Source: Amoebidium appalachense
Taxonomy: Eukaryota; Protista; Ichthyosporea
Reading direction: 5' to 3'
Length of the DNA stretch: 64,000 nucleotides
Assembly: GCA_963693365.1 (NCBI GenBank)
Contig: CAVNZM010000002.1
Location: 15,595,615 to 15,659,614 of the forward strand
Part shown: positions 1,489 to 52,754 of the stretch, one piece after another
Layout: the number at the start of each line of letters is the position of its first letter
Position numbering within the stretch: position 1 is the first letter of the stretch
The notes under the pieces: generated by a model
The model's database searches: none
Told to the model about the DNA's origin: nothing
Seen by the model: only the letters and a program-made list of their open reading frames with translations
Program-made: the position numbers and the translations under genes

Positions 1489-1593
1489 GTTGATTGATCA
1501 GTCAGACGGTGCGCGGGAGAGGAATCAGATCGGTATTCAAATTTGAATAGTTTCGATTGCAGCGAGAAAATGTGTTGCAAGAGCGTGCGAAAA

Positions 1594-10279: not shown

Positions 10280-11130
10280 TTAGCAGTTCTTGACCTCCTC
10301 CAGCTCGACCAGTACACCGCCGCAGTCCTTCGGGTGGAGGAACACCACCGGGTTACCGTGCGCACCTGAGGGCACAAAGATAAGTACTAATTGCACAGCA
10401 CATGCACACAGCACTAATGGCACAGCACATGCACGCAGTACTGATTGCACAGGACATATGCACACAGTACTTGTGTAGTTCAATGGAAAGAAAAAGGGTT
10501 ACATGGTGCACAATGCGGGCAGTGTTTTTGCACACGGTACTTACTTAAATGTGTAGTTGTATATGTGATGTGGGTAGAAACTGCACATTGACATCGTACT
10601 TGAAGCATATGCACGCAGAAGTGTATGCATGTCCGTGTGCAAGTGCATGATTACTGTCCCCCCCCCCCCCCCCCCCCCCCCCCTTTCCCGCCCTCTCCAA
10701 AAAAAATGGGGGAAAAGAGGGGGGGGGGGGGCAATGCATGCATGCAATATCTGACATGCACGCAGGAATGTGTGTCACAGTGCTGGATTTGTACTTGGTT
10801 GCACGGTGCGCACACCCATAAAAACATATCAACTTGCAAACACACGTAGTCGCACACAGTATCCATAAGGATACATCGCCAGCACACACACACAAACACA
10901 CACACAGAACACACACACCCCGAGTCCCAGGCACTCTCCGTGCACAAACAACTGCACACATGAATACACTAACAGCATTCCAGCATGTCAAGCGCGTGCA
11001 GACACACCCACACCCACAGAGACAAAGCTAGTGCATGCGTCTTTGTACACGTACAGCCTTAATCCTCATTGTGCACGTGGCTATTGAAGCCCCCCCCCTC
11101 CCCCCCCCTTCTCATCTCCAAACAAACAAG

Positions 11131-11164
<34 letters not shown>

Positions 11165-11180
11165 AAAAGAAAGAAAGAAA

Positions 11181-11220
<40 letters not shown>

Positions 11221-11766
11221 AAGAAAAAAGACGAATCAGAAAACAGACAGACAAAAACCCCTACCGATCTTGGGCTCCTTAGCCAGCAGGCGGATGTTCT
11301 TCTCCTTCAGGTCGTTCATGGACTTGTGGATGTCGTTGGTCTAAAGAGCCAATCAGAAGGGTCAATTTTTGCTCACTCTGAGTCACTCAGGCACTGATAT
11401 CGTGATGGTTGTTAGGCTTAAAGACACTACCAAAGAGGGAGAGGTGGGATGACAAACAGATAGGGAGATTGTTGGAGAGTTACAGTGGGCAGTGTGTGTG
11501 TGTGAGTGTGTTGGGTACTTGGGTGTTGGTTTCTTTTTCTTTCCTTCGTTCTTTTTTTTTGTGGTGGTGGTGGTGGTGGCGGTGTGGGTGTGTGTGGGTG
11601 TGTGTGTGTGTGTGTGTCTGGGGGGGGGGGGGGGGGGGGGGGAGGGAAAGAAACAAAGAAGGAAAGAAAGGGAGGGAAGCAACCCTACAGGCACCGACCA
11701 TGTCTGGGCTCGCAACCGCCACCCCCTAGATACATAGGTGCTTTTGCGTGCTCGTGTACTGGTTTT

Positions 11767-11803
<37 letters not shown>

Positions 11804-12234
11804 CCCACCCACACACACACACACACACCTGTACACCCTATATAGAGTCACATCCCGCGTCCGACACACCCATCATCTGACCAAAACCCTGCATGAGCCC
11901 CCTTGTGTGTAGCCAAGCATCCCCCCCTCCCCCCTTCTCTCCTCCATGCCTTAGGGGTGTGTGTGTTGTTGGGGGGGGGGGGGGGGGATCCCCACTCACT
12001 AATCTGAAAACCTTTTTACCAGAAACCATGCGGTTTCACCTACAAAAATCGCGTGTGTGGACAACGTGAAAATAATCAGCCGCAGCCTTCACGCACATGC
12101 ACACATGCACACGCACACACAAGAGAACGAGAAACAGAGAGTGAGACAGAGGGAGAGGGTGGGGGGAACGGGTTAGACCTCGTTATAGAGTAGGAACACA
12201 CACATTCAGAACGGACAACACAATGCAGAAGAGG

Positions 12235-12265
<31 letters not shown>

Positions 12266-13710
12266 ACGTGAGAAGTGCACGGAAGAGACAAAAAGTGCCC
12301 ATGTACGCACACCACACAGTATTGCACGTGTTTTCCCGCACCAGCCAAGCACGTGCTTAGTCACGTGACTAACCTCCAGGCACACGTGGTGGATGCCGCC
12401 CTCTGGGTTCTTCTTCAGAAAGTTCTCGATGGGGCTCTTGTCGCCGAACGGGTGGATGAGCTCGATCTTGGCACCAATGCCCATCTCCACGAACACGGTG
12501 TACACTCCGTGCTCGGGCTGGGGCTGCAACGTGTACGTGTGTGTGTGTGGGGGGGGGGGGGGGGGGGGAGGGGGTGAATGCCTTAATGTATGTGAAGGTG
12601 TGTGTGTATGGGTTTGTATGTGCTCATGTGTTTTTATTGGACGATTGCAAAGGCATGTGTATGCATGTGCGCTTGTGTGTACGTGCATGTGTGGTGAGTG
12701 TGTGAGTGTGTGAGTGTGAGTGTGTGTCTGTCTGTCTGAGTGCAACATGTGCAAATCACATGCATGTTGAGAATGGATGTGGGGCAAATAGCGGGCTCCA
12801 ATATTGGGACAAACAAACCACCCCCTTCCGCCGAAAATGTACCCCCCCTCCCCCCCCCGCACACACACAAACCCCCAAACATAATTTCTCAAAAACACCC
12901 ACCCCTCGACTCCGTTTGCCGGTTAAGACCCCTTTACCCCCCCCCCCCCCCCCCCTCCCAAACACACACACACACACATTATTCTTCAGACCTCCTTTCT
13001 CCGTGATTGCAAAAAAGCACACACCCACACAGACCCCAACACTCAAAAACACACACATGAAACATGGCAGAAGGGAGAAAGTATATTTGTAAGTGGTGAA
13101 TGAATGAGTGTAATGACTCTCCTGCTCCCTCCCCGCCCCCCTCCCCCCGCCCCCCCCTCACCACGACAACCCCCCCCCCCCCCAAACACCCGTACGCTCT
13201 AATAAACACTTGTCCATAGCATATTCACCTTAGACTATGCGGGTGTTTGTGCGTGAAGTACGTGATAATGTGCATGCGGCATGTCCCCCGCCGGGGAGGC
13301 TCCCCCCCTCCCCCTCCCCCATACCAACCTGCATGCCACTCATTTCGACGACCACACCAAGCACAAAGGCACAGACACATGCACCATACACACACACACA
13401 CACCGCATCCCATCACACACCACATACCAGCCCCATTCCACACACGCATACATACCACGGGCTCGGAGACCTTAGCGCCCAGCACATCCCTGTAGAGGCT
13501 CATGGACTTGGGCAGGTCGGGCACCGCAATGGCCACATGGTTGAGCTTGCCCAGCTTCCACAGCTTCTGTGGCACTGTGGCCTGGGGGGGGGGGGGGGGG
13601 GGGGGGAAGGGGGAGGGGTTAGAAGTGGTGTACTTGATAAAGAAGGGAGTGATACTGATACAAGAATATAATATAGCACCTGTTGGGAAGTGTGTGTGTG
13701 CTGCGTGTGT

Positions 13711-19328: not shown

Positions 19329-19385
<57 letters not shown>

Positions 19386-20605: not shown

Positions 20606-20692
<87 letters not shown>

Positions 20693-20996
20693 TCACTCAC
20701 TCACACTCACACTCAAGAGTTCAGAAAACATTGAAAAACGACATTAGCCTGGCCAGCCCTTGACCCCTGCACCTGCACCTGCATAGACACCGATAAATTT
20801 TCACACCCTATCCCTCTATTTCACTTCATCGAGACCTCTTGTTTTTTAAAGTTTTTAATCTGGCCAAGCTGTTAACTAACTATTGCACCCCTACCCCTGT
20901 ATGTGCCTCGCGCACAAAATAATTATTGTAAACGCACCTTTTCGCAAGTGAACACACATGCTCATACGCTCACATACACCGTGGGAGCACACCGAT

Positions 20997-21034
<38 letters not shown>

Positions 21035-21043
21035 TACGCACGC

Positions 21044-21125
<82 letters not shown>

Positions 21126-21252
21126 CGAGCTCGGTGGTTGGGTACCAGCATGGCTGACCAATCGGCTGAACCCAAAAGTCAGCATTGAGGAAATCCAACA
21201 CATTAAGAGAATGTGTGAGAGGGATACGGCGCAAGAGGCCGGCAACCAATAG
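17343..21252 (+). CDS. START (StAR-related lipid transfer) domain protein (4 exons)
   Basis: Exons 17343-17558, 18710-18954, 20204-20309, 21124-21252, phase-consistent. START hallmarks: [28 protein letters not shown]. Confidence 0.9.
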
Positions 21253-23971: not shown

Positions 23972-25162
23972 ATGGCGAATGCTTTCTCTCTCACAGTAGC
24001 TTTAGCGGCAGCTCTGCTTTTCACGGCAGGGGCCTCGCCTTTGCCACACGGTCGCGTTGCCCGTGCAGACGCAACAGCACCAAGCTGCACCGTGTCTAGT
24101 GGCACGTACTCGTACACAGACACGTTTCTGACCAAGCGCTCAAAAGCGGTAGAACTAGGGGCACAATGGAAGGCAGTGGAGGGTGTCAAAAACTACGAGC
24201 TTTGCTGGGATAACATGTTTAGCACGAGAATAGGTGGTGACACTCTAAGTGAAACGGTATGTGTGCTCGTTGGTGGCACAACATACAACAACGGGGGTTT
24301 GCGCTTGTACGGCTACCCAACGGGAGGAAGGCCTATTGATGTTCGCGTGCGCCCAGAGAATTGCACAGGCCCGTTTACGTCTCTCATCATTTCCAAAAAG
24401 CCAATTGGGAAGGTGTTCTGCAACCAAGCAACCCAGACAACACAGCTAATAGATCCGGCAAGCGTCAAGGTGGTTACTACGGTCACGGGTAGAAAGGCAC
24501 AGTCGAAGGTTACGTGGCAAGCGGAGAATGGCAAACCGATTACCGAATCGGTGGAAGCATGCTTGGTCCAGGTGCCGGGATATGGCACGGAGTTGTGGAC
24601 GTGCCGAAATGCCCAACCAGGAGCCACGTCTTTCAACTTCACGACGGATCTTAAAGACGAGACAACATACCTACGTGGTTCTGTTCGAGTGAGCAGCCAA
24701 TGCAGCGAATTTGTCGACGGTGAAGAGGATGTAGCGGTCAAGCCCTTTATGTATGTGCCCTTCCCTAACAAATTCCTCGGCCCAAAGGAGATGATTAACG
24801 GCACATGTTTGGTGACGGTAGGAACAAAAGCAGCGCTTCAGTATGGCGCCTGCAACTCAACTAACGTGGTTAAGGTAACGGGTGACGTCTACATCACGGA
24901 TGAGAACGCAACCACCAAAGATGGAAAGTGCATTGCTGCAGTTAAGGGCGCCGATGGCAAGTTTAGCGCCGTTTTGGCTGCGTGCAAGCAGGGAGATGTC
25001 ATGCAGGCGTGGGCGCCTTACGAGGGGAATAACTATATCGAGGGGCAGAAGCAGGTGAGGAATGCAGGGGCCGAGATACCAAACAAGGTGGGGACCAATA
25101 GCCAGTGTCTGGACTTTAGCGCAAAGCCTGGCACCCCGCCGGTGCTGAAAACGTGTGCTTAG
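23972..25162 (+). CDS. Secreted Cys-rich beta-rich protein, probable C-terminal ricin-B lectin region
   Basis: Intronless; signal peptide MANAFSLTVALAAALLFTAGA; TATATAAA at ~23854; C-terminal GKCI...LAAC...MQAW...QCLD pattern. Confidence 0.8.
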   Translation: MANAFSLTVALAAALLFTAGASPLPHGRVARADATAPSCTVSSGTYSYTDTFLTKRSKAVELGAQWKAVEGVKNYELCWDNMFSTRIGGDTLSETVCVLVGGTTYNNGGLRLYGYPTGGRPIDVRVRPENCTGPFTSLIISKKPIGKVFCNQATQTTQLIDPASVKVVTTVTGRKAQSKVTWQAENGKPITESVEACLVQVPGYGTELWTCRNAQPGATSFNFTTDLKDETTYLRGSVRVSSQCSEFVDGEEDVAVKPFMYVPFPNKFLGPKEMINGTCLVTVGTKAALQYGACNSTNVVKVTGDVYITDENATTKDGKCIAAVKGADGKFSAVLAACKQGDVMQAWAPYEGNNYIEGQKQVRNAGAEIPNKVGTNSQCLDFSAKPGTPPVLKTCA

Positions 25163-31162: not shown

Positions 31163-31474
31163 CAGGGTTCGAAGGACGGTGGAGCCCATTAACGGAAGTC
31201 GAAATCCCGTTTCGGAAAACCTCTTCGAAAATCGGAATGCTCCGTCGGAGCAGGCCCACCAAAAATCGTAATCATCGCGCATCAGTAAACTAGGGCATGC
31301 TTATTTGTGCCTATATTGCACCAAAATGTAATTATAATGCATACTCAAAAACCCCTGTGGTTATTAGAGGCCTTCCTGGTGTTGGCAGTTGAAGCTTTGA
31401 AGGAATAAAAGGGAAATATGAAGTGCATTAATGCACAATATATATGTACATTTTGTCTCCGTATTTAATAATAT

Positions 31475-31529
<55 letters not shown>

Positions 31530-31822
31530 GTGAGTTGAGGCAGCAACATGGGAAGCTCAGGCAGAAATCGAATGTTTGGGGGGGGGGCCGGGAGAGGTGG
31601 GGGGGGGGGGAGGGGGGGGGGGGGGAAGAAAATCAGGTTGGGTGGTTGTGTCTGTGTTTGCGTGTGTGTGAGTATTTTTCTTTGCAATTGTGTGTGTGTG
31701 TGTGTGGTGGGTATGTATGCACGGTTTGTGTGTCTGTGTGTATGTGTACAGGTGTGGGTGTGTGTATTTGTGTCAGCGGTAATCGGTGTGTGTGTCTATG
31801 TTGTGTGCATGTGTGCACATGT

Positions 31823-31873
<51 letters not shown>

Positions 31874-32061
31874 CATGACATTGTGTGCATGTGTGTGTGT
31901 GTTTTGCGTCAACGGTTATGGGGTGCGTGTATGTATGTACAGTGTGTGTATGTATGTGTGTGTGTGTGCTGTGTGGTGTGTATGTATGCAGGGTGTGTGT
32001 GTCTGTGTATGTGTGTGTACATGCCAGTGTGGGTGTGTGTGTTTGTACCAACAATTTCTTG

Positions 32062-32096
<35 letters not shown>

Positions 32097-32147
32097 GCCA
32101 CGGAGTGTGTGTGCGTGCGCCGTGTACATGGTGTGTGTGTGCAGTGT

Positions 32148-32186
<39 letters not shown>

Positions 32187-32845
32187 TGTTTGTGTGTGTA
32201 TGTGGGTGGGTGGGTGCATAGCATGTGATTGTACAGGGTGGATGCATGTGCACGTTTGTAATACAGTTATCATGATCTGAGATATTATGTGCCTGTGCAC
32301 GTGTACTAGCCTAGGTCACATGATTGTGTGGTGTCACGGCTGTGTATGTATGTGCATGTGCGTCTTTGAACGGAACACAGTGGTGCACAGTGTGTGTATC
32401 GCCTGCCATTGAAGACGCGTGCCACTGATCGTGATACACGTGGCACCTGCACCTGGTGGCCGTCGACTCTGAGCATCTAGATCCATTCCATGTTTAGGCC
32501 TTCCTGGGGGGAATGGGGGGGGGGGGGGGGGAGGGGGGAGTACTAGTAGGGGGGGGGGGGGGGGAAGGATCCGCCTGAGAGGGGGGGGGGGGGAGGGGTG
32601 AGGCCGGAGCGGCGGTGGGGGGAGAAGGAGGGGCAGCACTGGTGGAGGGAACGGTGGGCAGCGGAGGAGGGGGGAATGGGGTTCGATTTCTGGGGGTGGG
32701 GGAGTTTTGAAGTGGAGGCCGGCCTATATACAGTGATATACATATGTCGATATGCGCAGGCATGTGCATTGTATGCTCATGTGGCCATGCATGGCTATGA
32801 TGCATATGTGGTGTCACGGCTGTGTGTGTGTGAATTTGTGTGTGG

Positions 32846-32884
<39 letters not shown>

Positions 32885-33072
32885 TGGGTGTGTGCATAAA
32901 TGTGTTTGGTGTGACAACATGTACATGTGCTAGCTGGCGCTGTAGTCAGGGTCTGCCATTGAACATTCTACAGGGACAGGGAGACACGTACGTACGTGTG
33001 CAGCTTGTGTGGGTGGTGTATGCCCCGTGTATGATGAGACCTGCGAAGTCATGAGAAGCTTCCCCCCGGGGG

Positions 33073-33111
<39 letters not shown>

Positions 33112-33202
33112 CTCGCACGTTCCGATTCGGCCGGGACGATTTTCGGAACTGTGTTTTCAAATATCGGAAATTCCGATTTTTTTTTCGTAACTTCGAACCC
33201 TG
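31163..33202 (+). mobile_element. Non-autonomous hAT transposon, copy 1
   Basis: 12-bp TIR CAGGGTTCGAAG/CTTCGAACCCTG; 8-bp TSD CAAGTAGG; homologous to 45172-49648. Confidence 0.92.
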
Positions 33203-34238: not shown

Positions 34239-34739
34239 ATGCGCCCCTGCTTCGCCGTCCTTGCCATTGTGGCCATGTGCGTCTCCATGGCAACGGCCAT
34301 GAACCACCGTATGATTGAGGCCAAACTGGCCGAGCTGAAGGAGGAAATTGAAATCATCGCCGATGAGCTCAAGTATGGAGATGACGAACGTGTTCACTCC
34401 AAACACCACAAGTCCATGAACACGGCAGAGGTCGGGTACAAGGACGCTACCGTGAAGATGGGAGGTGATAATGGCGAACTTCAGTTTGTACCCAGTTCAG
34501 TTACAATAAAGGCGGGAGAGTCAGTCATTTGGGTTAACAATCAGGGGTTTCCTCACAACATTGTTTTCGACGAAGACCAAGTTCCCGATGGGGTGAATGC
34601 CGATGCCCTAAGCCATGAAGATTACTTCAACGGACCGGGTGAAAGGTGGAGCATGAAGTTCGACCGCCCGGGCACCTACGTATACTTTTGTGAGCCTCAC
34701 CAGGGTGCTGGCATGGTCGCCAGAATCATAGTCCATTAA
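34239..34739 (+). CDS. petE: Plastocyanin (chlorophyte-type) with secretory signal peptide
   Basis: Mature domain DATVKMGGDNGEL...NNQGFPHNIVFDED...YFCEPHQGAGM with all four type-1 Cu ligands (His, Cys, His, Met); intronless; TATAAAA at ~34080. Confidence 0.93.
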   Translation: MRPCFAVLAIVAMCVSMATAMNHRMIEAKLAELKEEIEIIADELKYGDDERVHSKHHKSMNTAEVGYKDATVKMGGDNGELQFVPSSVTIKAGESVIWVNNQGFPHNIVFDEDQVPDGVNADALSHEDYFNGPGERWSMKFDRPGTYVYFCEPHQGAGMVARIIVH

Positions 34740-37711: not shown

Positions 37712-38230
37712 ACACAACAGAACTTAGTCCGGCTATCACAGGTGCAAATTTGAAGAGGGTTTGTTCCACATACACCACAGCAAACATGAAACGTGAAAAT
37801 AATGGCAAAAACACCGGAAATATTCAGAAAAGGGCCGAACCCCCTTGATGAGCACCATGGCCCGGACGACACGAAGAAATCCGTTCGTGGAATGATTCTT
37901 GTTCAAAAGAGAAAAGGCAAAAGCAAACCTGCAAAACACACAGCCTGACCAAGACCTGACCAAGACCTGCAAAACCTTCAAGATTTGTTTATAAATTAGT
38001 TCACTTTATTTCGTAATAGCGTAATGTACACAAAAGCCAATCACACTAAAAGGACTGTCACACACCAAACACTCTTTCACATCAGCGAAAACATTTATCT
38101 ACAAAAACCTTTACATGCCGGCATACCATGATAATCGGGCTAATTCTAATTATAAAAATTGTACAATTGTTGTTCAGAAGTTTTATCTAATAGCTATCAC
38201 TTTAATATCATGCATGCTTTGTTTTTCTTC

Positions 38231-38323
38231 CTATTTCTTTGCAGGCCACTTGTCCATCACACCGATGTGGCTGGTGCCGATGTTGCCGATGAGGAGTTTG
38301 TCCCCGTGGGGGGTCACAGACGT

Positions 38324-38356
<33 letters not shown>

Positions 38357-39020
38357 CAGAGAGAGGGAAAGAGATAGAGAGGGGGAAAGGGGAGAGGGGG
38401 GGGGGGGAGGGAGATAGAGAGGACGGGGGGGGGGGGGGGAGACTCAGAGAGAAGGGAGAGAGAGAGCGAGAAAAAGATTGTGAGTGTGTGTGAGTAAGAG
38501 AGTGTGTGTTCGTGTGTGCGTGTTTGTGCGAGTGTGAGTGTGGGCACGAGTGTGTGCGTGCACCCACCTTTTTTTCCTAAGGAAATGGAAGCAGTGGACA
38601 ATTTTTTCTTTTTTTCCTTCTTGCTTTTTCTTTTTTATGTGTGTGTGGGTTTGTGTGAATGCGTGGGGGGGGAAAGAGGGGGGGGGAGGGGGCGAATGCA
38701 TGTGTCGTGACACAAGACATAAAACACAAGTCAGACAGAAATGGACCACGGAGGGGATGTTTTGTTGATGTTTGGAGGACGGGATGGAGGGCAGGGGGTC
38801 GGGGGGGGTGGGGTGGGATGGTTGGGTGGGTGGGAGGGGAGGGGGGGGATTAAATACATGTTTGAAAAGTGTGCCATGGGGGTCCTGCAGGGTTCGAATC
38901 AATTTGCCATCCGCCGAGTAGTGGAGGATCAGGCCGTAATCGGTCGTGGGGATGGACGCCCAACCGGAGATGGTGATCATCTGTGTGTGTGCGTGTGCGT
39001 GCGTGTGTGTGTGTGTGTGT

Positions 39021-39051
<31 letters not shown>

Positions 39052-40699
39052 CGTGTGTGTGTGTGTGTTGGCGCGCGGGGCGGGGGGGGGGGGGGGGGGG
39101 GGGGGGGGGTAAGTAATCGTTACAGGCTAAGAAGTACACACGAGACGGTGGTCATTGCAATGCACATGCTGCAAAACCGCACACAAAGAGTGTGCATCAT
39201 GAGTAGAGCCCATTTTTAGGGCGGCCCAGTAAATACACAGTACCCAATTTCCGACCCATTCACTCCAAAAGCCCAGCTCAGATTCTGCTTCACTTGAATG
39301 TGCTACCCGCCCAGATGAACCGAAGGGGTAGGGTTGGGGGCGGTGGTGGTGGGGTGGGAGGGGAGAAGGGCAGGTTTGGTCATTGCATAGAACGATATAA
39401 TAAGGGAAACATTAAAACACATACCGCATGCAATAATATGCAGACATAAGAACGCAAAAAGATAGCATGTATGAGAATGTGTGTTGGTATGTGTACGACT
39501 CGTGGATGAATGTATGCCAACTTGCTAATCGGCGCGCACGTGCGCGCGCGCGCGCGCGTGTGTGTGTGTGCTCGTGTCTCGTAACCACGTTGTCGCAGCC
39601 ATGAAAGGGCTTATATAGGCACATGTGTGCACCCATAGTCGTTTTAAGTTTGCTCCGTTTTACTTCTGCCTGTGGCGTGTCTTATATCCGTATCTGTCAC
39701 TCCTCCGCCTTTTATTAACACTTCACCTTCCCTTCCTTTTACTTGTTTTCTACTTTTTGTTTTCACGCGCAGGAGAGGAAGATGGACTAATTAGGGGACC
39801 GGGGGGATGGGAGGGGGAAAAGGTGTTGGAGGGGAGCGGGCAGGGGGGGGGGGGGGGGGGTTGTTGCATACGAAGTTCTGGACTTGTGTCTGCAGGGCAG
39901 GATACTGCCAGCCACACACAGCCTTCATGAGGGGGGTCACCAGTGTGTAAATGGCCACATACACACTGCCATCCGTAGCGTCAACCTTAACTCCATCAGG
40001 TGTGCCCGGCAGCCCCTCAACACTGTGGCCAATCAGAAGGGTGAGAATAAAGCCAAATATGGACATGATCTAAAGGAAATTAATGATAGGTCGACATAAC
40101 GTGATGAAGTGTGGATCAAGATGATTTGACGAAGTGTAGGTGTTATCTGTGAAACCAGGGTTGATCTGATGATACCGACTTCATTTAGCCATGTTGCCAT
40201 GCGTTGTCTCTGTGTGTGGCTCATAAGCATATACGGGTGGCTCACAATTAGATAGACAATAATGCAAATACGAAAGTTTAGATAGACAATAATGCAAGTA
40301 CGAAAATTTAGATAGACAATAATGTATTTAGAAACTTTAGTAAGAAGAATGGAAATCATGCATAATGATAGCTCGTTTGTCTCATTCTCTTCTCCTCCCT
40401 GCTCCCTGTATCACACATTTCTCCATACAAAATCCTGTAACAGCAAGCTCAATGTGCTTCTTCAAGCACCAATCAAAGAACACCACTTCCATATATGGTA
40501 CTCACAATATATCCGTTTTTCCCGCCTTTGGCCCTTTCAGCCAATGGCGTGAGACCCGAAAAGCGCCGGTTTCAGCCACCAATACTGCGTCCTGATTGGC
40601 TGTAAGGGTCACCCCGTTGGCAAAGTAGAGCCCCGTGGCAAGCACAGACGTAGACAGGGTGCTGGGGTCATACGCTGTGTGTGTGTGTGTGTGCGTGTG

Positions 40700-40778
<79 letters not shown>

Positions 40779-40781
40779 CGG

Positions 40782-40819
<38 letters not shown>

Positions 40820-41291
40820 TGTCTATATGTGCATACGTGGTGCATGTGTGTGTGTGCATGTGAGTGTGCGTGTATCACAGAGTGTGTTAGCAATCACAGT
40901 GCACATGCGCAAGGACAGAGAGAGAGGGGGGGGGGGGGGGTTTGAATAGAAATACGGCACTAAGTACATATACACGATAGAAGCATGGTGCAGAACACAT
41001 GCAAAGGCAAAATATTCAAGTATGCAACATCAGCAATGCGCACAGTATGCGTCATAAGCAGAGCCCATCCTCAGGGAGGCCCCGGGCGACAGTGAAACAC
41101 GGACCAACAACTAGGGATGAGCGATCACCATAGGGTCATGCAAGTGCTAGCACATCTTCATATGCTTATATTCACGTGTGTGTGCGGGTGGGTGCGTAAA
41201 ATGTAAATGGAATGGTGTGTGCCCTTGGTGTTATTGAAATTTGTGTGTGTGCGTGGTCGTTGACGCAGTAGTAGGTGGGGAGCTCCCCCCC

Positions 41292-41322
<31 letters not shown>

Positions 41323-41393
41323 AAAAACTCCGCCTCTCGCGTCCCCTTCCATTCTCTCTCCCCTGCCCCCCCCTCCACCCCCCCCTTCCCCCC

Positions 41394-41439
<46 letters not shown>

Positions 41440-41694
41440 TCTCTTCCCCTCCCTCCCCCCCCCCCTCCCCCCCCTCCCCCCAGCACCTCTCTTAACCATA
41501 CCCACAAAAACATCCACACAGCAATATTTGATCATCCAAGGCACCATATAGCCTCCCTGCTATACTGAAAAACGTTTTAACCCAAGATGTAAACCTAACC
41601 CCCCATCAATGTCCCATTCACTTACTCTCACCACAGCTATAGTCAGAGAAGCCTATGCCATCCCCCCTCCCCACTCCCCTCTCCTTCCGGACTT

Positions 41695-41735
<41 letters not shown>

Positions 41736-42086
41736 ACCACCACCACCACCGGATAATAAAAAAAACAGGAAGAAAGAGCAAGAAAGGGAAAGAAACTAAA
41801 TAACTGCTCTGCTCCCTCAGGTACCTGCCTCACTCAATCCCCCTCCCCTCCCCCCCCCCCCCAAAAAAAAAATAAAAAATAAAATAAAAAAAAGATTAAA
41901 TCAAAAAGATCAAAAGCGGGAAAGAAAAAAAGAAAAGAAAAAGAAAGGAAAAGGGAAAGATCTACAAACGCGGCATTCACATCAGACCCAACCCTTGCAC
42001 TCACCCAGTAGTCTGCCTGAAGCCACACCACTTGTGAAATCCACCTTGGCCGTGTACACAATGTCTGTGAAGCGTCACATGTCAGC

Positions 42087-42121
<35 letters not shown>

Positions 42122-42290
42122 TTCCCCAAGAAAAAAAAAGAAAAAGAAAAAGAAAAAGAAAAGAAAAGGAAAAAAAAAACAAAAACCGACAGACAGACAC
42201 ATGCACAACCATCCCCTTCTCCGCCCCACACCTCTCCCACAAACACTCCTTTTTTCAGGCTGCCTCCACACAGGCTTCACTCCTCGCTCC

Positions 42291-42325
<35 letters not shown>

Positions 42326-43239
42326 CACACACAGGCACACACACACACAATTCCCACTTTTCTATTTTCCTTTCACGATAGTTCAGGACTGCTCGTTTAA
42401 AGTAACGACGGAGCCCCTGGGCGGGCACTCGGGGGGCGGGGGGAGGGGGGGGGAAGCGATGATCCTAGTTTGGTTTTTGTTCTTTCCTCTTTTGGGGGGT
42501 GATGATGGTGACAGTGGTGGGATTGGAGGGGTTCTATCATATAAGTTTATTTGGATGCAAACTCTTCTTAGTGATATGAACCACCTGCGCAACACAACCT
42601 TTGCCACAACTTATCCTTGCATTCGTCGTATACACCCAGAAAATCCACATGACACAATAGGCAGAAATTCAAACAAGGTGAACAATACAAAAGCAAATAA
42701 ACATTGAAAAGAAGCCTCCCCCGTCTCCCCCTCCCCCCCCCCCCCCCCCCTCCCTCCCCCCCCGTGCCGTCACTCACCGAGGTTGTTGTGAAAATCCACA
42801 GGCACCCTAATAGCCGATGCATCGCTGAAATAAATTTTGCCGTCCTCTGCAATGGTGATGTCATCGGCATAGTTGATTGGCTGCCCGCCTGCCTGGGCCG
42901 CCAACACGGTGACCTGACGGGTTGTCTTGTCGACCTTTACTAGGCCCTTCTGACACTCGGCTAGAATCAGGTCCCCGTTCTGTGTGTGTACGTGTACGTG
43001 TATGTACGTATGTACGTGTGCGTGCCACCAGGGGGGGGGGGGGGGGGGAGGTACGTGTGTGTGTACGTGTGTGTGTGTGTGCATGTGTACGTGATTGTGT
43101 GCGTCACAAAAAGTGTGTTCGTGTTGTGTTGTGTGTGTCACTGTGTGTGTGTCACTGTGTGTGTGTCACTGTGTGTGTGTTTGTGTTTGCGTGTGTGTGT
43201 GTGTTTGTGTTGTGTTGTGTGTGTGTGTCACTGTGTGTC

Positions 43240-43275
<36 letters not shown>

Positions 43276-44919
43276 TCTGTCATACACACATGTGCACACA
43301 GTGGGCAACATGATGCAGGCTGGGCAGGGGTTGCTGAGACACAGCAAGTAAATGCACGAGTACACAGTTAGCCGGTGCATTGGGCAGTCAGTCCAATTCG
43401 CATGTAGGCTCCAATGAACAAAGCAAAAGGGGAAAAAAAAATAAAAATACTCATTCTCTCCCTCCCTCCCCCTCCCTTCCTCTTTTCCCTCCCAACCCTC
43501 CCCCCTAGATCTTCCCTCCTGACCTACCTCCCTCTCTTTCCCTCCGTCTCTCCCCGGATATCCCCCCCCCCCCCCCCTCTCCCCCCCCCCCCCCCCCCCC
43601 CCCCCCCAAAAAAAAAGAAAAGAAAGAAAAAAAAACAAAAAAAACGACCTCCTCCTTACCCCCCCCCCCCCCCCCCCCCCCTCTCCTCCTACCACAAAAA
43701 GAACAACAAAAGAAAGGCAAAGAAAGAAAAGCAACACCGATTATCCCTCCGCATCGCACCCCTTCCCCCCGTCCACCACCACCATTAGCAACACACACAC
43801 ATACATACGCACAGACACACACACATACACACACACACACACACATACACACGCACGCACACACACATACATACACGTATACACACAACCCGTCTTCCCC
43901 CATCCCCCCACCACCCCACCCCTCTCCCCGTCAACTCTCCTCCTTCTTCCCCCTCCCCCCACCCCCCACCCCCCACCCCCCTCACACACACACACACCCA
44001 CCTTGTCGAAGGCGCCACCCAAAGCCCTTCCACCCACATAGGCCCACAGGCCCACACTGCCGTTGGGGTGCACCGTCACAACTGACCCATCATGGCGGCA
44101 CGTCAGCAGGGTCTCCCCGTCAGGTGCCACAATAACGGTCTCGGGGCTTTGTAGCTGCCCCTCTCCAAACGTCTGGCTGTAAAGGGAACGAGATAGGGTT
44201 ACGAAGGAGAAAAGACGGAATGTGTAGAAAGGATGGTGGTTAGGGACCGGGAGAAGAGTGATGGGGGGAGGTGGAGTAGTGCGGGGAACTTACGGTACGA
44301 CAGAAATAGCGAAAAGTAGGAGTTGAGAGAGAGCTGTAATGAGAGGGAAAGAACGCGGGCCACCGCGGTGAGGGGCCTGGGGAGGAGGACAACAAATCGG
44401 CAAGGGGAGGGTAAAAAAGGTAACCTAATAATTAGTGTTTTCTGGTGTTCTCTTAAATAAGATCACGCGAGAGCAGAAGGACGCACGAAGCAGGAAGAAC
44501 GGTTGTGCTCTTGGAAAACAGTGAGCACGCATGTAAACACACCAGTGAGGTCACGACGGTAGAATTCCCGCACAGATGTTTTCATGAAATTGCTCGGTGG
44601 CGTGGCTTGACACCAACGTAATATATGGTGATGCAAGGTCTAAACGATCACACGATAGAGCAAAAAAAAAAAAAAAAGTATAAGAAGTCAACGTCAGTTT
44701 TTGTTCTGCCCACTTCCATGCAGCACTGCATACCGCGTACGCACAAACATAACTATGGCAGGGGGGCACATACGCGCGTAACAGGTCGTTGTTTGGCGCA
44801 AATTCTCCCTCCAGCTCTGCATATTTGAAGCAGGGCTTTGGCACGGATGGCACGTCGTTCGTGCCCAGCAAGAAGCCCAGCCAGGCAGCCAGACCGCCCA
44901 CAGCGTACAATGCTAACAT
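38231..44919 (-). CDS. Strictosidine synthase-like / APMAP family beta-propeller protein (8 exons)
   Basis: Exons 44774-44919, 44002-44176, 42778-42979, 42005-42064, 40506-40674, 39872-40022, 38858-38980, 38231-38326, phase-consistent. Motifs [43 protein letters not shown]; N-terminal anchor. Confidence 0.92.
40248..40326. repeat. 30-bp tandem repeat (~2.6 copies), intronic
   Basis: TTAGATAGACAATAATGCAA(A/G)TACGAAA unit repeated. Confidence 0.85.
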
Positions 44920-45450
44920 GGTGTGGCCGCGGATATATGGGTACGGAGAGCGAGTAAAGAGGGGTGAGCACGTAGGCCCAACTTCTACTTGACACTTTTA
45001 CAACAGTGAACAGGCAGACAACAGGTTCGCGGCGCTGTTTTTGAAAATTTTGTGTGAGGGAACGATGCTATTGGCTCATGCACCTCAAGAATTTTCATTA
45101 GTTACCAGTCTGTTTGTTTTAACCATATATGGTCATCGTGAGCCACCGTCCAGGTCCGTCCTGGACACGGACAGGGTTCGAAGGACGGTGGAGCCCATTA
45201 ACGGAAGTCGAAATCCCGTTTCGGAAAGCCTCTTCGAAAATCGGAATGCTCCGTCGGAGCAAGCCCATCAAAAATCGTAATCGTCGCGCATAAGTAAACT
45301 TGAGTACTTGTACTTGAGTTGGTTAACAATGTGAGAATAATCCCAATTAATAACTTGAGTTGGTTAACATTGTGAGAATAATCTTAATTAGTAATGCAAC
45401 AAGTGAACGTGGCTTCTCTGGTGTGAATGTCCTTAAGACTTCTCTCAAAG

Positions 45451-46047
45451 CACGTAGGGGGCCCCCCGGCAGATTCGGCCTTCTTCCACAACCGGGCCGT
45501 TTGGTTGGCTGGCGCGGGGCCGGGGTTACGTAAGGCGGTGGGGTCGGGGGAGGCCAGACCACGATATGGAGGTTTGGGGGGAGGCCTGCGCAGGGCCTTA
45601 CGTAAGCCTTACGTAAGGCGGTCAGGCGGGGGCGGGCGCTAGGTAGAGCACGATACGGAAGGCGTGGGTCTGGGGAGGTTTATGTGGCGAATCGGGCTGC
45701 GCGGTTGTGAAACTTGCGCTAATGACGTCGTCAGTAGGGAACCAGTCAGATTCTTCGGTCGTGGAAGTTGCAGAAGTGGCCTCGTGAGCCGTGATAGTGA
45801 ACCAGTCGGAGGGCCCGGTTGTGAAAGTTAGCTAATGAGCGTTAATTACACGGGGATTTACGCTGTTTACTCGAGGCAAAGAGAACCAGTCTCAGGTATG
45901 GGGGGGGGGGTTTTGCTCGGAATATCCCCTCAGCGGTATATCATGATCACGTACATAGATGTCGGGTGGTGACTATATATCAGGGTTTACTTTCTCTACG
46001 AGACACCATCAAGACTACAAGGAGAAATCAATTAGTTGGGGTTCCCC

Positions 46048-46083
<36 letters not shown>

Positions 46084-46115
46084 GGGCTCCCCTCGGGACA
46101 CTCGGTATCAGCTGG

Positions 46116-46170
<55 letters not shown>

Positions 46171-47586
46171 TGTGTGTGTGTGCGCGTGCGCTATAATTTT
46201 GTAGTGATGTGTTTCTCAAGCCAATCAATACATCTAATAAACAGGTCGTAGTTACGCGTGTTTAGTATAAAATCAAGGATGTTGTAATTTACAGGTAGGC
46301 TATCTTTCTGGGTGTCTGTTGTGAATGTGACGTGTGTGTGTTGCGGTATTATGTGGTCTATCAAACTACATTTGGCGATACATGACCGGTTAAACTGGTG
46401 TGTGTGTGTGTTGTTTGGGCATGCAAATGATGCCACCTTATACTTATTAGATCTCCACTGTATAGCACGTGTACAGTAAAAGCGTGGTAATTGATCAATA
46501 ATACCATCAGCTAGAGAAAGACCAGTTCTACAGGAAGGTAATATGTATTTAGGTGTTATACACTTGCGAGTGCCATATTTGGCAATATGGTTGAGGCGGT
46601 CAGTATATATAAAACGAGACATAAGGCTTAATTACACCTGTAGCTTGCACAACCGGGCGATACCATTGGGTAGTGGTTTGAAGTTTTATGATTGGATAAA
46701 AACCATTCAATCCTTTTGGCGGGTATATATAAACGTAGATCTGGGGGTAGTATATAATGCAGCAACACGATATTTGACGCTCAGTTTTTATAATGCCGCC
46801 GAAGCGAAGCAGAGCAAAGCAGAAGAAAGTTGTACAGCCTCCTTGTGGTACTAGTGAATATGCAGTTGCGAGCATAAGCCTGAACATAACCAATGCGGGT
46901 GGGAATGTGCGATACCATTTGGTAGGCCTTTTGAATGAAATGGTTGGGTAGGAATCACGGTATTTGTCTTAGCGGCTAGTGGAGAGGTATAAAAAGGGTG
47001 AACACGATATCGTCGATCACTTTGTGACGCAGCGCGGTGTGGAGCAGGGTACTCAGAAGAAAGCTGTCTGGAGCGAGCCTTTTTCTTGTTAGTACTGCAT
47101 AACAGTCAAACTCGAGTGTGGATATCTTTGAACACGAGTAGGAGGTTTCCTTTTTGTCGAAGTACTGTTTGTTGTTTTTTTGACAAATAGTATGTTAAGA
47201 TAGTCGCAGAAGTTCTTTCTTTTTACAATTTTTTTATTGCGGACTGCGGCTCAGAGGAGCTGTCAATGTTAGGCACCTCATAGAATTATGGTCGGATCAT
47301 TTTTCGAAGCTTGGTGAACATGAATTATTGGCGGCAACTGATCTGAGTGCGAGGTGATGGCGCTTCAAGCTGAGATTGGTCAGGGCCGGAATCGGATCCC
47401 TGACAGGTGCATTGTGGGTCGAAAGACGTAGGGCTACCTTTCGTAAAAACGGTTTTTTGCAGTTTCCTTATATGGCTAATCGGATCGAACCGGATTCGAT
47501 CTGGACCAATCATAAATACCCCTTGGCAGAGTTTCTCGTTACGACACGTAGGGCTACCTTTCACGTAGGGCTACCTTTCACGTAGG
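45451..47586 (+). mobile_element. Non-autonomous Replitron-type element
   Basis: Bounded by the direct repeat CACGTAGG (45451-45458, 47579-47586). 45453-45851, 46628-46910 and 47426-47575 are inverted copies of parts of 49760-51760; keeps only ~39 codons of the Rep ORF (ATG 46793). Confidence 0.85.
45852..46627. mobile_element. Unclassified insertion with 10-bp TSD
   Basis: TTAATTACAC is duplicated at 45842-45851 and 46628-46637 but single in the intact copy (~51357-51366). Begins with the 22638-family repeat; no TIRs. Confidence 0.8.
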
Positions 47587-48288
47587 ACAACACAGACAGT
47601 GCACAATCAGCTCATGATAGCCATGAATGGGCCGGATATAGAGGCAGATGTGAAGCACGTGAAAGCTGAGCTTTATTTTCAGAAAGAAATGGCTAAGAAA
47701 TTAGTTAAAGAGGGCAAACTGAAAGGGTTAACTGTAGAAGGGGCCAAGGAGCAGCTGGAAAAAGCTCAGGTGGCCGAGGCAGCAGCCCAAAAGAAGGCTC
47801 TGGCAGATTTCCTGGCTTTTGACTGGAACAGGGTGCACAATGTGTATATTGCCAACCCTTTCAAATAAATTGGATCTCTGACAACACACCAGCACCTAGT
47901 AACCGTCAAGTAGTCTCCCTTGTTTTCATTTAAAAATTCTGGGGGAGGGGAGGGGAGGGAGGGAGGGGGTGGGGGGGGGGGGGGGGGGGGGGGGGGGAGG
48001 TGAGTTTAGGCAGCAACATGGGAAGCCCAGGCAGAAATCGAATGTTTGGGGGGGGAGGGGAGGGGGGGGGGGGGGGGGAAAGAAAATCACGTTGGGTGGT
48101 TCAGAAGTTGTGTTTGTGTTTGTGTGTGTGTGTGTATTTTTCTTTGCAATTGCGTGTGTGTGTGTGGTGGGTATGTATGCACGGTGTGTGTGTCTGTGTG
48201 TATGTGTACACGTGTGGGTGTGTGTATTTATTTGTGTCAGCGGTAATCGGTGTGTGTGTGTCTATGTTGTGTGTATGTGTGCACATGT

Positions 48289-48319
<31 letters not shown>

Positions 48320-48533
48320 CTTGTGTGTGTGTGTGTGCATGACATTGTGTGCGTGTGTGTGTGTGTTTTGTGTCAACAGTTATGGTGTGTGTGTATGTAT
48401 CACGGTACAGTGTGTGTATGTATGTGTGTGTGTGTGCAGTGTGGTGTGTATGTATGCAGGGTGTGTGTGTTTGTGCCATGATGTGTGTGTACATGCCAGT
48501 GTGGGTGTGTGTGTTTGTGCCAACGGTTTCTTG

Positions 48534-48568
<35 letters not shown>

Positions 48569-49520
48569 GCCACGGGTTGTGTGTGCTTGCGCCGTGTACA
48601 TGGTTTGTGTGTGCAGTGTAAGTGTGTGTGTGTGCGTGTGTGTGTGTGTGTGTTTGTGTGTGTGTGGGTGAGTGGGTGCATAGCATGTGATTGTACAGGG
48701 TAGATGCATGTGCACGTTTGAAATAAAGTTATCATGATCTGAGATAGTATGTGCCTGTGCACGCGTACTAGCCTAGGTCACATGTGTGGTGTCACGGCTG
48801 TGTATGTGGGGTGCATGTGTGCCTTTGAACGGAACACAGTGGTGCACAGTGTGTGTATTGCCTGCCATTTAAGACGCGTGCCACTGATCGTTGATACACG
48901 TGGCACCTGCACCTGGTGGCCGTCGACTCTGAGCATCTAGATCCATTCCATGTTTAGGCCTTCCTGGGGGGGAAGGGGGGGGGGGGGGAGGGTACTAGGG
49001 GGGGGGGGGGGGATCCGCCTGAGAGGGGGGGGCCGGGGGGGGAGGGTTGAGGCCGGAGCGGCGGTGGGGGAGAAGGAGGGGCAGCACTGGTGGAGGGAAC
49101 GGTGGGCAGCGGAGGAGGGGGAGAATGGGGTTCGATTTCTGGGGGGGGGAAGTTTTGAAGTGGAGGCCGGCCTATATATACATGCGCAGGCATATGCATT
49201 GTATGTTCATGTGGCCATGCATGGCTATGATGCATATGTGGTGTCACGGCTGTGTGTGTTTAAATGTGTGTGTGTGTGTGTCTGTGTGTGTGTGTGTGTG
49301 TGTGCGCGCGTGGGTGTGTGCATAAATGTGTTTGGTGTTACAACATGTACATGTGCAGGGCTGGCGCTCTAGTCAGGGTCTGCATGCCATTGAACATTCT
49401 ACAGGGACAGGGAGACACGTACGTACGTGTGCAGCTTGTGTGGGTGGTGTATGCCCCGTGTATGATGATACCTGCGAAGTCATGAGAAGCTTCTCCCCGG
49501 GGGCGGGGCGGGGCGGGGGG

Positions 49521-49584
<64 letters not shown>

Positions 49585-49759
49585 CTCTCAGGCGTTCCGA
49601 TTCGGCCGGGACGATTTTCGGAACTGTGTTTTCAAACTTCGAACCCTGGACACGGAGTCTCTAGATGGCCGTGGTCCTGGACCACTGAGTCTGGATTGGC
49701 CATGCCACTGCCCACTCGTGCACGCCGTGCACGGTCCCTGCTCCAAGGCTTTGTACCCG

Positions 49760-51762
49760 TAGCCCTACGGAAAGGTAGCCCTACGTGTAGTAGAGGAAAA
49801 CTTTGTCCACGGATATTTATGATTGGTCCAGATCGAATCCGGTTCGATCGGATTGCCCATATAAGGAAACTGCAAAAAACCGTTTTACGGAAAGGTAGCC
49901 CTACGTGTTTTGCCCTGCCATGACCCTGCAAGCCAATCCAAAACTAAAGCTACACAATACTGCATCTACATCAGTTACCACCCCGCTCAGCGTACAACAC
50001 CGGATCAATACATCAGCTGCCTGCCAAAAAGTCTGAAAACACGTTCTAATGTTATCAGTATAACTAATGCCTACTACGCATGCAATTGTTAACAAATGTG
50101 TCACTGTTCGTGATCGTTGTCTGACCAATCCATTGGTTCACTCCCAGAGTCTTCTTGCACGTTGGCGAAAATATGTCCATCTCGTTCTACAAAATCCTCC
50201 TGTTGCTGGCAATCGTGAGGATGATAGTGCACGCCCGGTCCAAAACGATAACGATACTTCGCCGTGATATCACTTGGCGGTATCCATTGCGTGTCCTGAA
50301 CCACATCCATTTTTCTCTGTCTCCGAACGTCGGCACAGTACCTCATGACGTCCCGATAAGTTCCATGTGTGTTTCTCGCCGCTTCCAACAAGGACTCATA
50401 CGCATAGTATACGCACTGCGACCCCCCATGATCAAAAAACATCCGAACCACATCTTCCCTCGTTACTGTGTATGGACGGTGGATGGTTTGCCATCCCAAA
50501 ATTCCCAACCTCTCGGCATCAAATGCTTTTCCATACCCAGCTGTCATCATTTCTCCACTGACAGCGAATCGACCAGACTGCAGCATGAGCCATAGAACTT
50601 CTGGCAATGGCGGGCACTGGACCGGCCACATATAGTAATGATAGAACCCATACGCAAGTTTCAAGATAGATTTCCTGGAAATGATCTGCTTCCCTTCTGT
50701 CCAATCTTTCTTGTGGATTGCATATTTTGCATTGGCGCGATTCACTTCGTCATCTGACACGTCCAACAGAAACAATCTGAAATCTGGATCTCCCGTATCT
50801 TTCGCAACATAGGCGATCATCTGCTCAAATGTTTGCCCGCCTGTCTCATTCAATCGCTTGGCACTTATCCGCATTGAAATATTTTCATCATCCTCTGGCG
50901 GATTAATATAACTCTTCAACTCTTTCTTCAGAGTACTAACACCTTTCCTGCCACCAGGGATCCGAATTTTCCACACAGCCTGAACATGCAAATTACCCGC
51001 ACTTTTCCCCCGCTCCAACGCAGTAGCTCCCTTCACAGCAAATTGCCTCGCAAAATTACACGCATGATCGTACCACACTGCGGGCACATTCCCACCCGCA
51101 TTGGTTATGTTCAGGCTTATGCTCGCAACTGCATATTCACTAGTACCACAAGGAGGCTGTACAACTTTCTTCTGCTTTGCTCTGCTTCGCTTCGGCGGCA
51201 TTGTAAAAACTGAGCGTCAAATATCGTGTTGCTGCATTATATACTACCGCCAGATCTACGTTTATATATACCCGCCAAAAGAATTGAATGGTTTTTATCC
51301 AATTATACAACTTCAAACCACTACCCAATGGTATCGCCCGGTTGTGCAAGCTACAGGTGTAATTAACGCTCATTAGCTAACTTTCACAACCGGGCCCTCC
51401 GACTGGTTCACTATCACGGCTCACGAGGCCACTTCTGCAACTTCCACGACCGAAGAATCTGACTGGTCCCCTACTGACGACGTCATTAGCGCAAGTTTCA
51501 CAACCGCGCAACCCGATTCGCCACATAAACCTCCCCAGACCCACGCCTTCCGTATCGTGCTCTACCTAGCGCCCGCCGCCGCCTGACCGCCCTACGTAAG
51601 GCTTACGTAAGGCCCTGCGCAGGCCTCCCCCCAAACCTCCATATCGTGGTCTGGCCCCCCCCGACCCCACCGCCTTACGTAACCCCGGCCCCGCGCCAGC
51701 CAACCAAACGGCCCGGTTGTGGAAGAAGGCCGAATCTGCCGGGGGGCCCCCTACGCCCTACG
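49760..51762 (-). mobile_element. Putatively autonomous Replitron-type HUH transposon
   Basis: CGTAGGG direct repeats at both ends, no TIRs, single Rep ORF; ends defined by homology to 45451-47586 (to within about 10 bp). Confidence 0.85.
50101..51201 (-). CDS. Replitron HUH (Rep, Y1) transposase, 366 aa
   Basis: Motif I-like ISLNI, motif II ALERG..GNLHVQ (HUQ), motif III MIAYVAKD (single YxxK); no helicase/Walker A; basic NLS-like N-terminus. Confidence 0.85.
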   Translation of the reverse strand: MPPKRSRAKQKKVVQPPCGTSEYAVASISLNITNAGGNVPAVWYDHACNFARQFAVKGATALERGKSAGNLHVQAVWKIRIPGGRKGVSTLKKELKSYINPPEDDENISMRISAKRLNETGGQTFEQMIAYVAKDTGDPDFRLFLLDVSDDEVNRANAKYAIHKKDWTEGKQIISRKSILKLAYGFYHYYMWPVQCPPLPEVLWLMLQSGRFAVSGEMMTAGYGKAFDAERLGILGWQTIHRPYTVTREDVVRMFFDHGGSQCVYYAYESLLEAARNTHGTYRDVMRYCADVRRQRKMDVVQDTQWIPPSDITAKYRYRFGPGVHYHPHDCQQQEDFVERDGHIFANVQEDSGSEPMDWSDNDHEQ

Positions 51763-52109
51763 CGGTAAGTGGCCGGGGCGGCCCACGACGCTGCGGGACG
51801 TCTCCGGCGGGGTCCTTCTGGCTGTAATGACCAAATGTAATGACTAATCGAAATGCTTTTTATAATGACTTTATTGATGTGCTCATATAAGGTGAAAAGG
51901 CGAGATATCGCAGATATCCCGGGATAAAGAAAAAACCGCTCATGAAAAGAAGATATCGGCCAAAAAAAATACACAGTGCTTTAGATACATAACATCGTAA
52001 TGCATAGTACTATATGTATAGCACAACTGATAGGAGTCAGCTCGGGAAGGATAGGTTCAGAAATAAAGTTGCAAACTTTGAGAAAGGAGACAGCTGCAAG
52101 AATTCGAAC

Positions 52110-52421
52110 AAAAAAAAAAAAAAAAAAAAAGAAGAAGAAGAAGAAGAAGAAGAAGAAGAAGAAGAAGAAGAAGAAGCTCAGATGTAGAAAGAAGCTCAGG
52201 TGTAAACTAACTGGGAGGAGATCACAAGAGAGAGAAAAAACTTTCCGGAATAGCCAAGGCATCCGATCCTTGACTACCCCGGTTGGAGTTAGCTTAGAGG
52301 GCCATTGCCATAGTTCTGCACCCAGGCGAGTCCCATCAGGGCATCCGATCCCCAATTCGCTACATCCCGGGATTCGAACCAGGTGCCTCCTGCGCGTCGG
52401 AGGCCGCTCGGCCACAGCGGC
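52110..52421 (-). mobile_element. tRNA-derived SINE
   Basis: Pol III A box TGGCCGAGCGG (52414-52404) and B box GGTTCGAATCC (52380-52370), a unique body, then a (TTC)n/poly-T tail; no full cloverleaf, no clear TSD. Confidence 0.65.
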
Positions 52422-52754
52422 TCCTCGTAAATCTAGATCCGATTACACGCGATCGAACTTTGTCTAATATAGTGACTGTCGCCTGCAACATACAAGCAGG
52501 GTGACAGCACTCAAAAGCTGCCACCTACATACTGAGATCTACATTGTAGATGGCTCCTTAACATTCAGCGAACCGTTTGGACCTCTATCGAACCGTCGAG
52601 GCGCCGCGACAGAAAGCATGCACGCGGTCGCGAGAGTTTAAGGAAAACCCGCCTGCAGCGAACGTAAAGTTCATCGCAGCGCGTGCACACCGTCAGTACG
52701 TGTGAGACTCAAAAGGTCCCTGCATATGCTACCACCTACTGAGGCGGTGTCTCC

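Follow-up and report, generated by a model that had tools for sequence, protein, structure and literature searches.

In this work, we analysed a stretch of 64,000 nt of DNA (hereafter the window), in which two copies of one transposable element lie 2.2 kb apart, between different flanks and in opposite orientations. Copy 1 (about 49760..51755, minus strand) is a full-length autonomous Replitron of ~2.0 kb, with an intact ORF and both ends common to copy 2; the sequence shared by the two copies spans 49759-51755. As the initial annotation had it, this ~2-kb element is devoid of terminal inverted repeats: no pair links its two ends among the 25 longest of the 380 inverted pairs.

Read in gene orientation, copy 1 begins with the left terminal direct repeat CGTAGGG (51749..51755, minus strand), where the alignment with copy 2 ends and whose first four bases are perhaps target-derived, as CGTA is retained in the empty form of copy 2. 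An extra CGTAGGG unit (51756..51762, minus strand), possibly a duplication or filler, lies outside this common left end and is absent from copy 2. CGTAGG is found at both ends of each copy and CGTAGGG begins each; the short direct repeats initially assigned to both ends were borne out as CGTAGG.

The right end consists of tandem CGTAGGGCTAC(CTTTC) units with a 16-nt spacing (49759..49788, minus strand; direct-repeat families D10 and D11). A palindrome with a 7-bp core stem and a 5-nt loop (49831..49849), identical in both copies, precedes it, and an internal 23-bp exact repeat of the right-end unit (49886..49908, minus strand; D10), located 120 nt inside, bounds a repeat-hairpin-repeat module. 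The order of this module is the 23-bp repeat, the palindrome and then, 120 nt on, the tandem CGTAGGGCTACCTTTC(A) units. In gene orientation, CGTAGG starts at 51762, 51755, 51596, 49905, 49785 and 49769; copy 1 has two such starts in its tandem right end, where copy 2 has three (47547, 47564 and 47581). Ten of the 14 CCCTACG/CGTAGGG sites of the window fall inside the two copies, which together measure ~4.1 kb. The palindrome region folds in both copies with an energy no better than that of shuffled sequences (z -0.55 and 0.15), and the same holds for folding of the left end. A search of viral contigs with the pattern of the palindrome retrieved nothing, and Rfam yielded no match in 44800-52600.

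Copy 2 (45453..47586, plus strand), which the initial annotation had overlooked, is a non-autonomous derivative recognised by alignment with copy 1, i.e. the left end, the first 39 codons of the ORF, an unrelated filler and the right-end module. Over the common left 672 nt, 662 positions are identical to copy 1, and the right-end module shows 85 % identity. The filler (46911..47403, plus strand, ~490 nt) is unrelated to copy 1, has no other match in the window and is contiguous with the element in contigs of sequencing runs X12 and X14. Copy 2 is interrupted by a very abundant host repeat of 776 nt (45852..46627), flanked by a 10-bp duplication, TTAATTACAC, and recognised from the sequence and from read-set contigs. 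Without this insert, copy 2 measures 1348 nt and is contiguous in run X12 (contig 11); the corresponding joint, 45841 to 46628, was found in four of the four runs compared.

Some features of the repeats around copy 2 were also recorded. The 776-nt repeat has no terminal inverted repeats, reaches a summed contig depth in the hundreds of thousands in run X1 and forms joints turning back on themselves; it had no Rfam match, and no tRNA was found in the window. In run X9, loose ends formed by its termini also turn up at 49991 and 51735, and it has therefore entered Replitron copies more than once. The right flank of copy 2, multicopy in X1, contains a 99-aa open frame (47569-47865, plus strand) that has no Pfam match. 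A GT-rich repeat of 1.7 kb is present in two copies (31463-33161 and 47928-49636) that are 87 % identical.

Identification of the transposase

The ORF of copy 1 (50101..51201, minus strand) is intronless and encodes 366 aa with no internal stop, as originally described. Its residues 38-160 matched the Pfam family Replitron_HUH (PF21859) with 69 bits, the cut-off being 28.5 (E 6.4e-19). The Y1 HUH (Rep) domain (50722..51126, minus strand), supported by this profile, by conservation counts and by fold matches, comprises motif I (SLNI), E63, motif II (HVQ) and motif III (AYVAKD). The HUQ and single-tyrosine YxxKD motifs already noted in the initial annotation correspond to H72-V73-Q74 and Y131-V-A-K134-D135, and G65 follows E63. 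G65, H72, Q74 and K134 are invariant in all 80 rows of the alignment. In motif I, the serine and both hydrophobic positions are retained; the position occupied here by N carries T in 65 of the 79 homologues and N in one of them. In motif III, Y131 and K134 are present and A130 stands where 78 of 79 homologues have G.

A second, helical and putatively oligomerising Replitron domain covers residues 178-258 (50428..50670, minus strand). Replitron_C (PF21860) reached 21.2 bits over residues 182-256, below its cut-off of 27, and a profile built from 79 homologues picked by likeness to the query, the query itself being left out, gave 71.4 bits over residues 178-258 (200 shuffles scored 4.2 or less).

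A profile search of 1.84 billion representatives returned 282 proteins at an E-value of 0.001 or better. The best homologue shows 34 % identity over residues 18-258, none being higher among the 150 matches listed, and the best 40 of these 150, which were scanned, all passed the Replitron_HUH cut-off. In a word-based protein search, the single ORF protein retrieved none of 1320 candidates and an alignment query only two proteins. No related locus was found in the viral or metagenome contigs scanned. The predicted structure has a mean pLDDT of 80.1, with a tail (residues 299-366) below 50. Its four best fold matches among 48,161 chains are circovirus and nanovirus Reps (Z 9.5, 8.8, 8.2 and 8.1), the top one being the circovirus Rep 7kii (Z 9.5, rmsd 3.6, 99 residues aligned); Foldseek with the same model gave nothing at an E-value of 0.001 or better.

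The ORF contains no Walker A pattern and matches no Pfam helicase family, as had been proposed, nor does it match the Helitron, IS91/ISCR or IS200/IS605 families in Pfam at E-values up to 1. Profile, homologue and fold evidence together identify it as a Replitron transposase, which upholds the initial identification. According to the available part of one preprint (10.64898/2026.09.22.753402), archaeal replicons also give Replitron_HUH profile matches, so that this profile alone would be insufficient; here the second domain and the termini concur. Two other memberships were considered and rejected: Helitrons, i.e. a Y2 Rep fused to an SF1B helicase, on account of the single tyrosine motif, the size of 366 aa and the lack of a helicase; and CRESS-DNA viruses or pCRESS, whose HUH fold matches but whose SF3 helicase is missing here.

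Copy survey in sequencing runs

The survey of copies was carried out on the contigs of sequencing runs rather than on a whole assembly, and seven different runs were compared in detail. Part of the element was detected in 20 of the 24 listed runs and half or more of it in 11. In run X1, two ORF contigs of 530 and 383 nt differ from copy 1 at 0 and 1 positions at a depth of 176, to be compared with 45.6 for a nearby host exon contig and 706 for a contig of the copy 2 type. These ratios roughly suggest about four near-identical full copies and about 15 deleted ones, as ratios of depth and not copy numbers. Runs X1 and X2 give identical contig bounds and are possibly not independent.

Additionally, a diverged subfamily with ~86 % DNA identity was found over 50101-51128 in runs X1 and X13, and chiefly this subfamily in X13. 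In X1, it has a depth of 48.8 and 95 differences in ~674 nt; it carries a 2-nt insertion in the frame, and small insertions likely break the latter. In shorter derivatives, the left part is fused directly to the right module, either from 49911 to 51341 (X2 and X13) or, at the coordinates of copy 2, from 45848 to 47377 (X14 and X15). Among the joints listed, none led from the right end back to the left one; contigs lose rare forms, and this result therefore carries no information on circles. The right module is much deeper than the ORF in read-set contigs. Contigs from other loci begin or end at the right-end repeats, including the internal 23-bp repeat; at copy 2, the starts listed are 47426 or 47546, a single base ahead of a repeat, and the stop listed is 47584, and a different right flank starts just past CGTA at 47584 in three of four runs. 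The recent activity initially suggested is supported by the 662 of 672 positions shared with the second copy and by the near-identical collapsed contigs, from which the element is likely to have spread recently, as judged from sequence comparison.

Empty sites

An empty counterpart of copy 2 is provided by an 816-nt contig of run X12, in which 17 other letters stand between 45456 and 47590 and the element is missing. It matches copy 2 through CACGTA, i.e. four bases into the left repeat; ~9 nt of it have no counterpart in filled copy 2, and it shows 12 differences and 4 gaps in 285 nt. CGTA occurs at 0.0023 of the positions of the window. Among the four empty forms of copy 1 with known letters, CGTA is present at the junction on the gene strand in two and absent in two; two further joints, for which the letters between are not known, match the element's own right unit. 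Because both flanks are repetitive, what is seen here may be paralogous host repeat copies instead of genuine pre-insertion alleles. Since the empty form of copy 2 retains CGTA, the target may supply part of the direct repeat. The simplest reading of these two loci is that the target may resemble the core of the repeat.

Host genes and phylogenetic placement

Among the neighbouring genes initially annotated, ELP4 was confirmed (PAXNEB, 33.2 bits for a Pfam cut-off of 28), as was MCEE. The Phactr/Bni4-type assignment was not: the ORF concerned (5881-6390, plus strand) has no Pfam match and gives a weak PP1-binding Atlas lead (0.81). Its KHVSF and YDRR pattern is one that we take to recall a PP1-binding module.

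Four exons of the host MCEE gene were located by homology (10285..13581, minus strand), the N-terminal part not being located; they have GT-AG borders and make up 144 codons with no stop. Among 139 matches of one of these exons, the best named one is CFRG1096T1, and all named eukaryotic MCEE matches belong to Amorphea. CFRG identifiers stand for Creolimax fragrantissima, as given in the available part of PMC6981761. A one-residue insertion occurs in three of 121 sequences (the window, Creolimax and one further protein); of the remaining sequences, 116 lack any insertion there, one carries two extra residues and one was unscored.

In a tree of 39 rows, made of the named matches and the top other ones without P0152 (which reads through an intron), the window is sister to Creolimax (99/74). 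With the 20 named rows and the sparse columns dropped, this grouping reached 99/95. Grouping with fungi (p-AU 0.034) or with two animals (p-AU 0.041) was rejected, and grouping with Dictyostelium or bacteria was not (p-AU 0.061 each); the set held no named algal or stramenopile sequence. This short gene tree and the insertion in common point, with high probability, to an ichthyosporean relative of animals, narrowing the unicellular opisthokont host proposed initially.

A plastocyanin-like gene (34239-34739, plus strand; PF00127, 113 bits) encodes a hydrophobic N-terminal leader followed by a short helical spacer. It consists of a single open frame, the genome being intron-rich, and lies closest to bacterial clusters in the Atlas, although the taxa given by that tool are not evidence of transfer. 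In a likely non-photosynthetic host, it is possibly a transferred gene for a secreted copper protein.

Other genes were observed in the window. A long open frame at 1-1497 (minus strand) resembles the start of a retrotransposon gag-pol, with a weak Pol_BBD match in an overlapping frame (2-589, E 0.0028). At 23972-25162 (plus strand), a single-frame protein combines a hydrophobic leader with a ricin-type lectin domain that scored weakly, below cut-off (E 0.00024). An intron-rich strictosidine-synthase-like gene (~38200-44800, minus strand) and a gene with a START domain (~18700-21250, plus strand) were also recognised.

Phylogeny of the transposase

A tree was inferred for 80 Replitron proteins, i.e. 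that of the window and 79 of the 150 listed matches chosen for covering the conserved region, the named Replitrons of the founding paper lying outside this set. The protein of the window sits on an end branch of 0.92 and groups with two unnamed proteins (97/85) in an analysis whose bootstrap was not settled. Taxon names were available for four of the 29 homologues looked up, and all four are green algae. With at most 34 % identity among the matches listed, there is no close donor; recent horizontal transfer is thus unsupported, and an acquisition would be old or from an unsampled lineage. GC3 was rejected as evidence of transfer: it is 0.49 in the Rep gene versus 0.86-0.90 in two MCEE exons, but 0.58-0.62 in other genes of the window.

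Discussion

Taken together, our results are best explained by an intact Replitron accompanied by a deleted partner, in a host that is likely ichthyosporean, with likely copy-and-paste transposition through single-strand nicking at the CGTAGG end repeats, and we consider this overall reading probable. By analogy with HUH chemistry and with Replitron-1, the metal-binding site formed by E63, H72 and Q74, together with the single Tyr131, would nick the gene-sense strand at the left repeat, and the strand would be displaced by host replication or by a host helicase. Past the palindrome, copying would end at one or another of the tandem repeats of the right end, and such a variable stop would account for the differing numbers of units in the copies. 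The second tyrosine could be supplied by several subunits. The strand would then be joined into a host site already reading CGTA, in which case the target would have contributed part of the apparent left direct repeat. Derivatives that are deleted but retain both ends, perhaps even the repeat-hairpin-repeat module alone, could be moved in trans.

A bolder version of this scenario, which we put forward tentatively, is that the first Replitron family in Amorphea has recently been active in a close relative of animals, that it inserts by strand exchange into CGTA sites mimicking its own nick motif, its terminal direct repeats being partly target-derived, and that the 160-nt right-end module is mobile as a mini-element.

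Other explanations bear on the host and on the nature of the locus. The host might be a protist that is photosynthetic or related to algae, where Replitrons would come as no surprise; the plastocyanin-like gene, the green algal origin of all four taxon-named homologues among the 29 looked up and the MCEE tree devoid of named algae would fit this. We consider it unlikely, given the position of MCEE as sister to Creolimax with an insertion in common, the restriction of its named eukaryotic matches to Amorphea, and a plastocyanin-like gene that is one open frame among intron-rich genes with bacterial nearest clusters. The CRESS Reps among the best fold matches could be taken to mean that the element is an endogenous fragment of a CRESS virus, a misassembly or contamination from an alga, and no listed contig spans it as a whole. 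Such an origin is nevertheless very improbable: two copies with differing flanks occur in one window, one of which a very abundant host repeat has entered, flanked by a clean duplication of 10 bp; parts of the element occur in 20 of 24 listed runs; and the element has neither a helicase nor a relative in viral contigs.

With an ichthyosporean as the preferred host, the element would most likely go back to an old transfer, its source being an algal or protist lineage so far unsampled. Replitrons could instead be ancestral to Amorphea, vertically inherited here and lost from animals and fungi, so that no horizontal transfer would be needed. The end branch of 0.92, the best identity of 33-34 % and the sister relationship to only two unnamed proteins (97/85) would suit such descent, as does the ancient origin with mostly vertical descent that Craig favours in the available text of PMC10288648. 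The same source reports, in its available portions, that the complete set of eukaryotic assemblies at NCBI in June 2021 was searched, with no animal, fungal or other opisthokont host listed, so that vertical descent would require many losses; we hold it to be possible though somewhat doubtful. The end repeats, for their part, could belong entirely to the element, with an unspecific target, and the CGTA of the empty forms could be due to chance or be a relic of earlier insertion and loss. Only two loci were looked at, one joint of copy 1 (49768 to 51765, side 25) agrees with the right-end unit of the element itself and might be such a relic, and most Replitron families have no obvious target according to Craig (PMC10288648, as far as available). 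Set against this are the match of the copy 2 empty form four bases into the repeat, CGTA occurring at only 0.0023 of positions, and the insertion of Replitron-1 after RG described in the accessible part of PMC10288648, which seems to resemble the end of its TAAAGG repeat. A wholly element-encoded repeat is quite possible; a partly target-derived one is the reading that we retain.

If confirmed, the occurrence of a Replitron family in an opisthokont would mean either that these elements existed near the eukaryote root and were lost from animals and fungi, or that they passed from one supergroup to another. The element is compact, intronless, near-identical in multiple copies, accompanied by deleted partners and different from sample to sample, which makes it a practical system for studying the nick site, the target and a possible circular intermediate. 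In addition, the terminal direct repeats, by which Replitrons are distinguished from other HUH transposons, could be explained along the lines of the CGTA observation, and this explanation can be tested.

Comparison with known systems

Published Replitron hosts, as listed in the available text of PMC10288648, are green plants and algae (Archaeplastida), stramenopiles, cryptophytes and haptophytes; neither "opisthokont" nor "ichthyospor-" appears in the text and supplements of that paper, as far as these are available. This founding paper is the only one mentioning PF21859 in the literature searched. In the ichthyosporean genome paper PMC11244446, the available text contains no Helitron, HUH or rolling-circle term, and these terms and Replitron are absent from the supplements searched. 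No report of an opisthokont or holozoan Replitron was found in the open literature searched; subscription papers, bioRxiv supplements and repeat libraries such as Dfam could contain the family.

The element shares with Replitrons (PF21859, PF21860 and PMC10288648, available parts) a Y1 Rep with HUQ, an upstream Glu and YxxK, a second domain of ~90 aa, for which multimer formation is a hypothesis of that paper, and the lack of a helicase. It also shares the 2-4 kb size range, the short terminal direct repeats, the right-end palindrome and non-autonomous partners outnumbering full copies, as they are described in the same available parts. It differs from the Replitrons covered there by its likely opisthokont host, by an identity of at most 34 % to the homologues found, by SLNI and AYxxK instead of SUTU and GYxxK, and by tandem right-end units of 16-17 nt with an internal repeat 120 nt inside. 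Unlike Replitron-1, for which RG with variable duplications is given in what is available of PMC10288648, it has an apparent CGTA target overlapping the repeat.

With Rep proteins from CRESS-DNA viruses (circovirus 7kii and 8h56, nanovirus 6h8o), it has in common the HUH fold (Z 8.2-9.5 over 95-99 residues) and, following the accessible text of PMC10288648, the single tyrosine and HUQ. It departs from these viruses in having no SF3 helicase, no capsid gene seen, 12-19 % identity and the form of a linear, integrated, multicopy element with terminal repeats. Helitrons, IS91/ISCR and IS200/IS605 are likewise HUH transposons without terminal inverted repeats, with a hairpin near an end and orientation-specific targets (PMC10288648, available text), but the present element has neither a Y2 motif nor an SF1B helicase, and terminal direct repeats are undescribed for those groups in the same text. 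The element is therefore of a known kind, a Replitron, and what is new is likely the supergroup of its host, together with the hint that part of its terminal repeat may be derived from the target.
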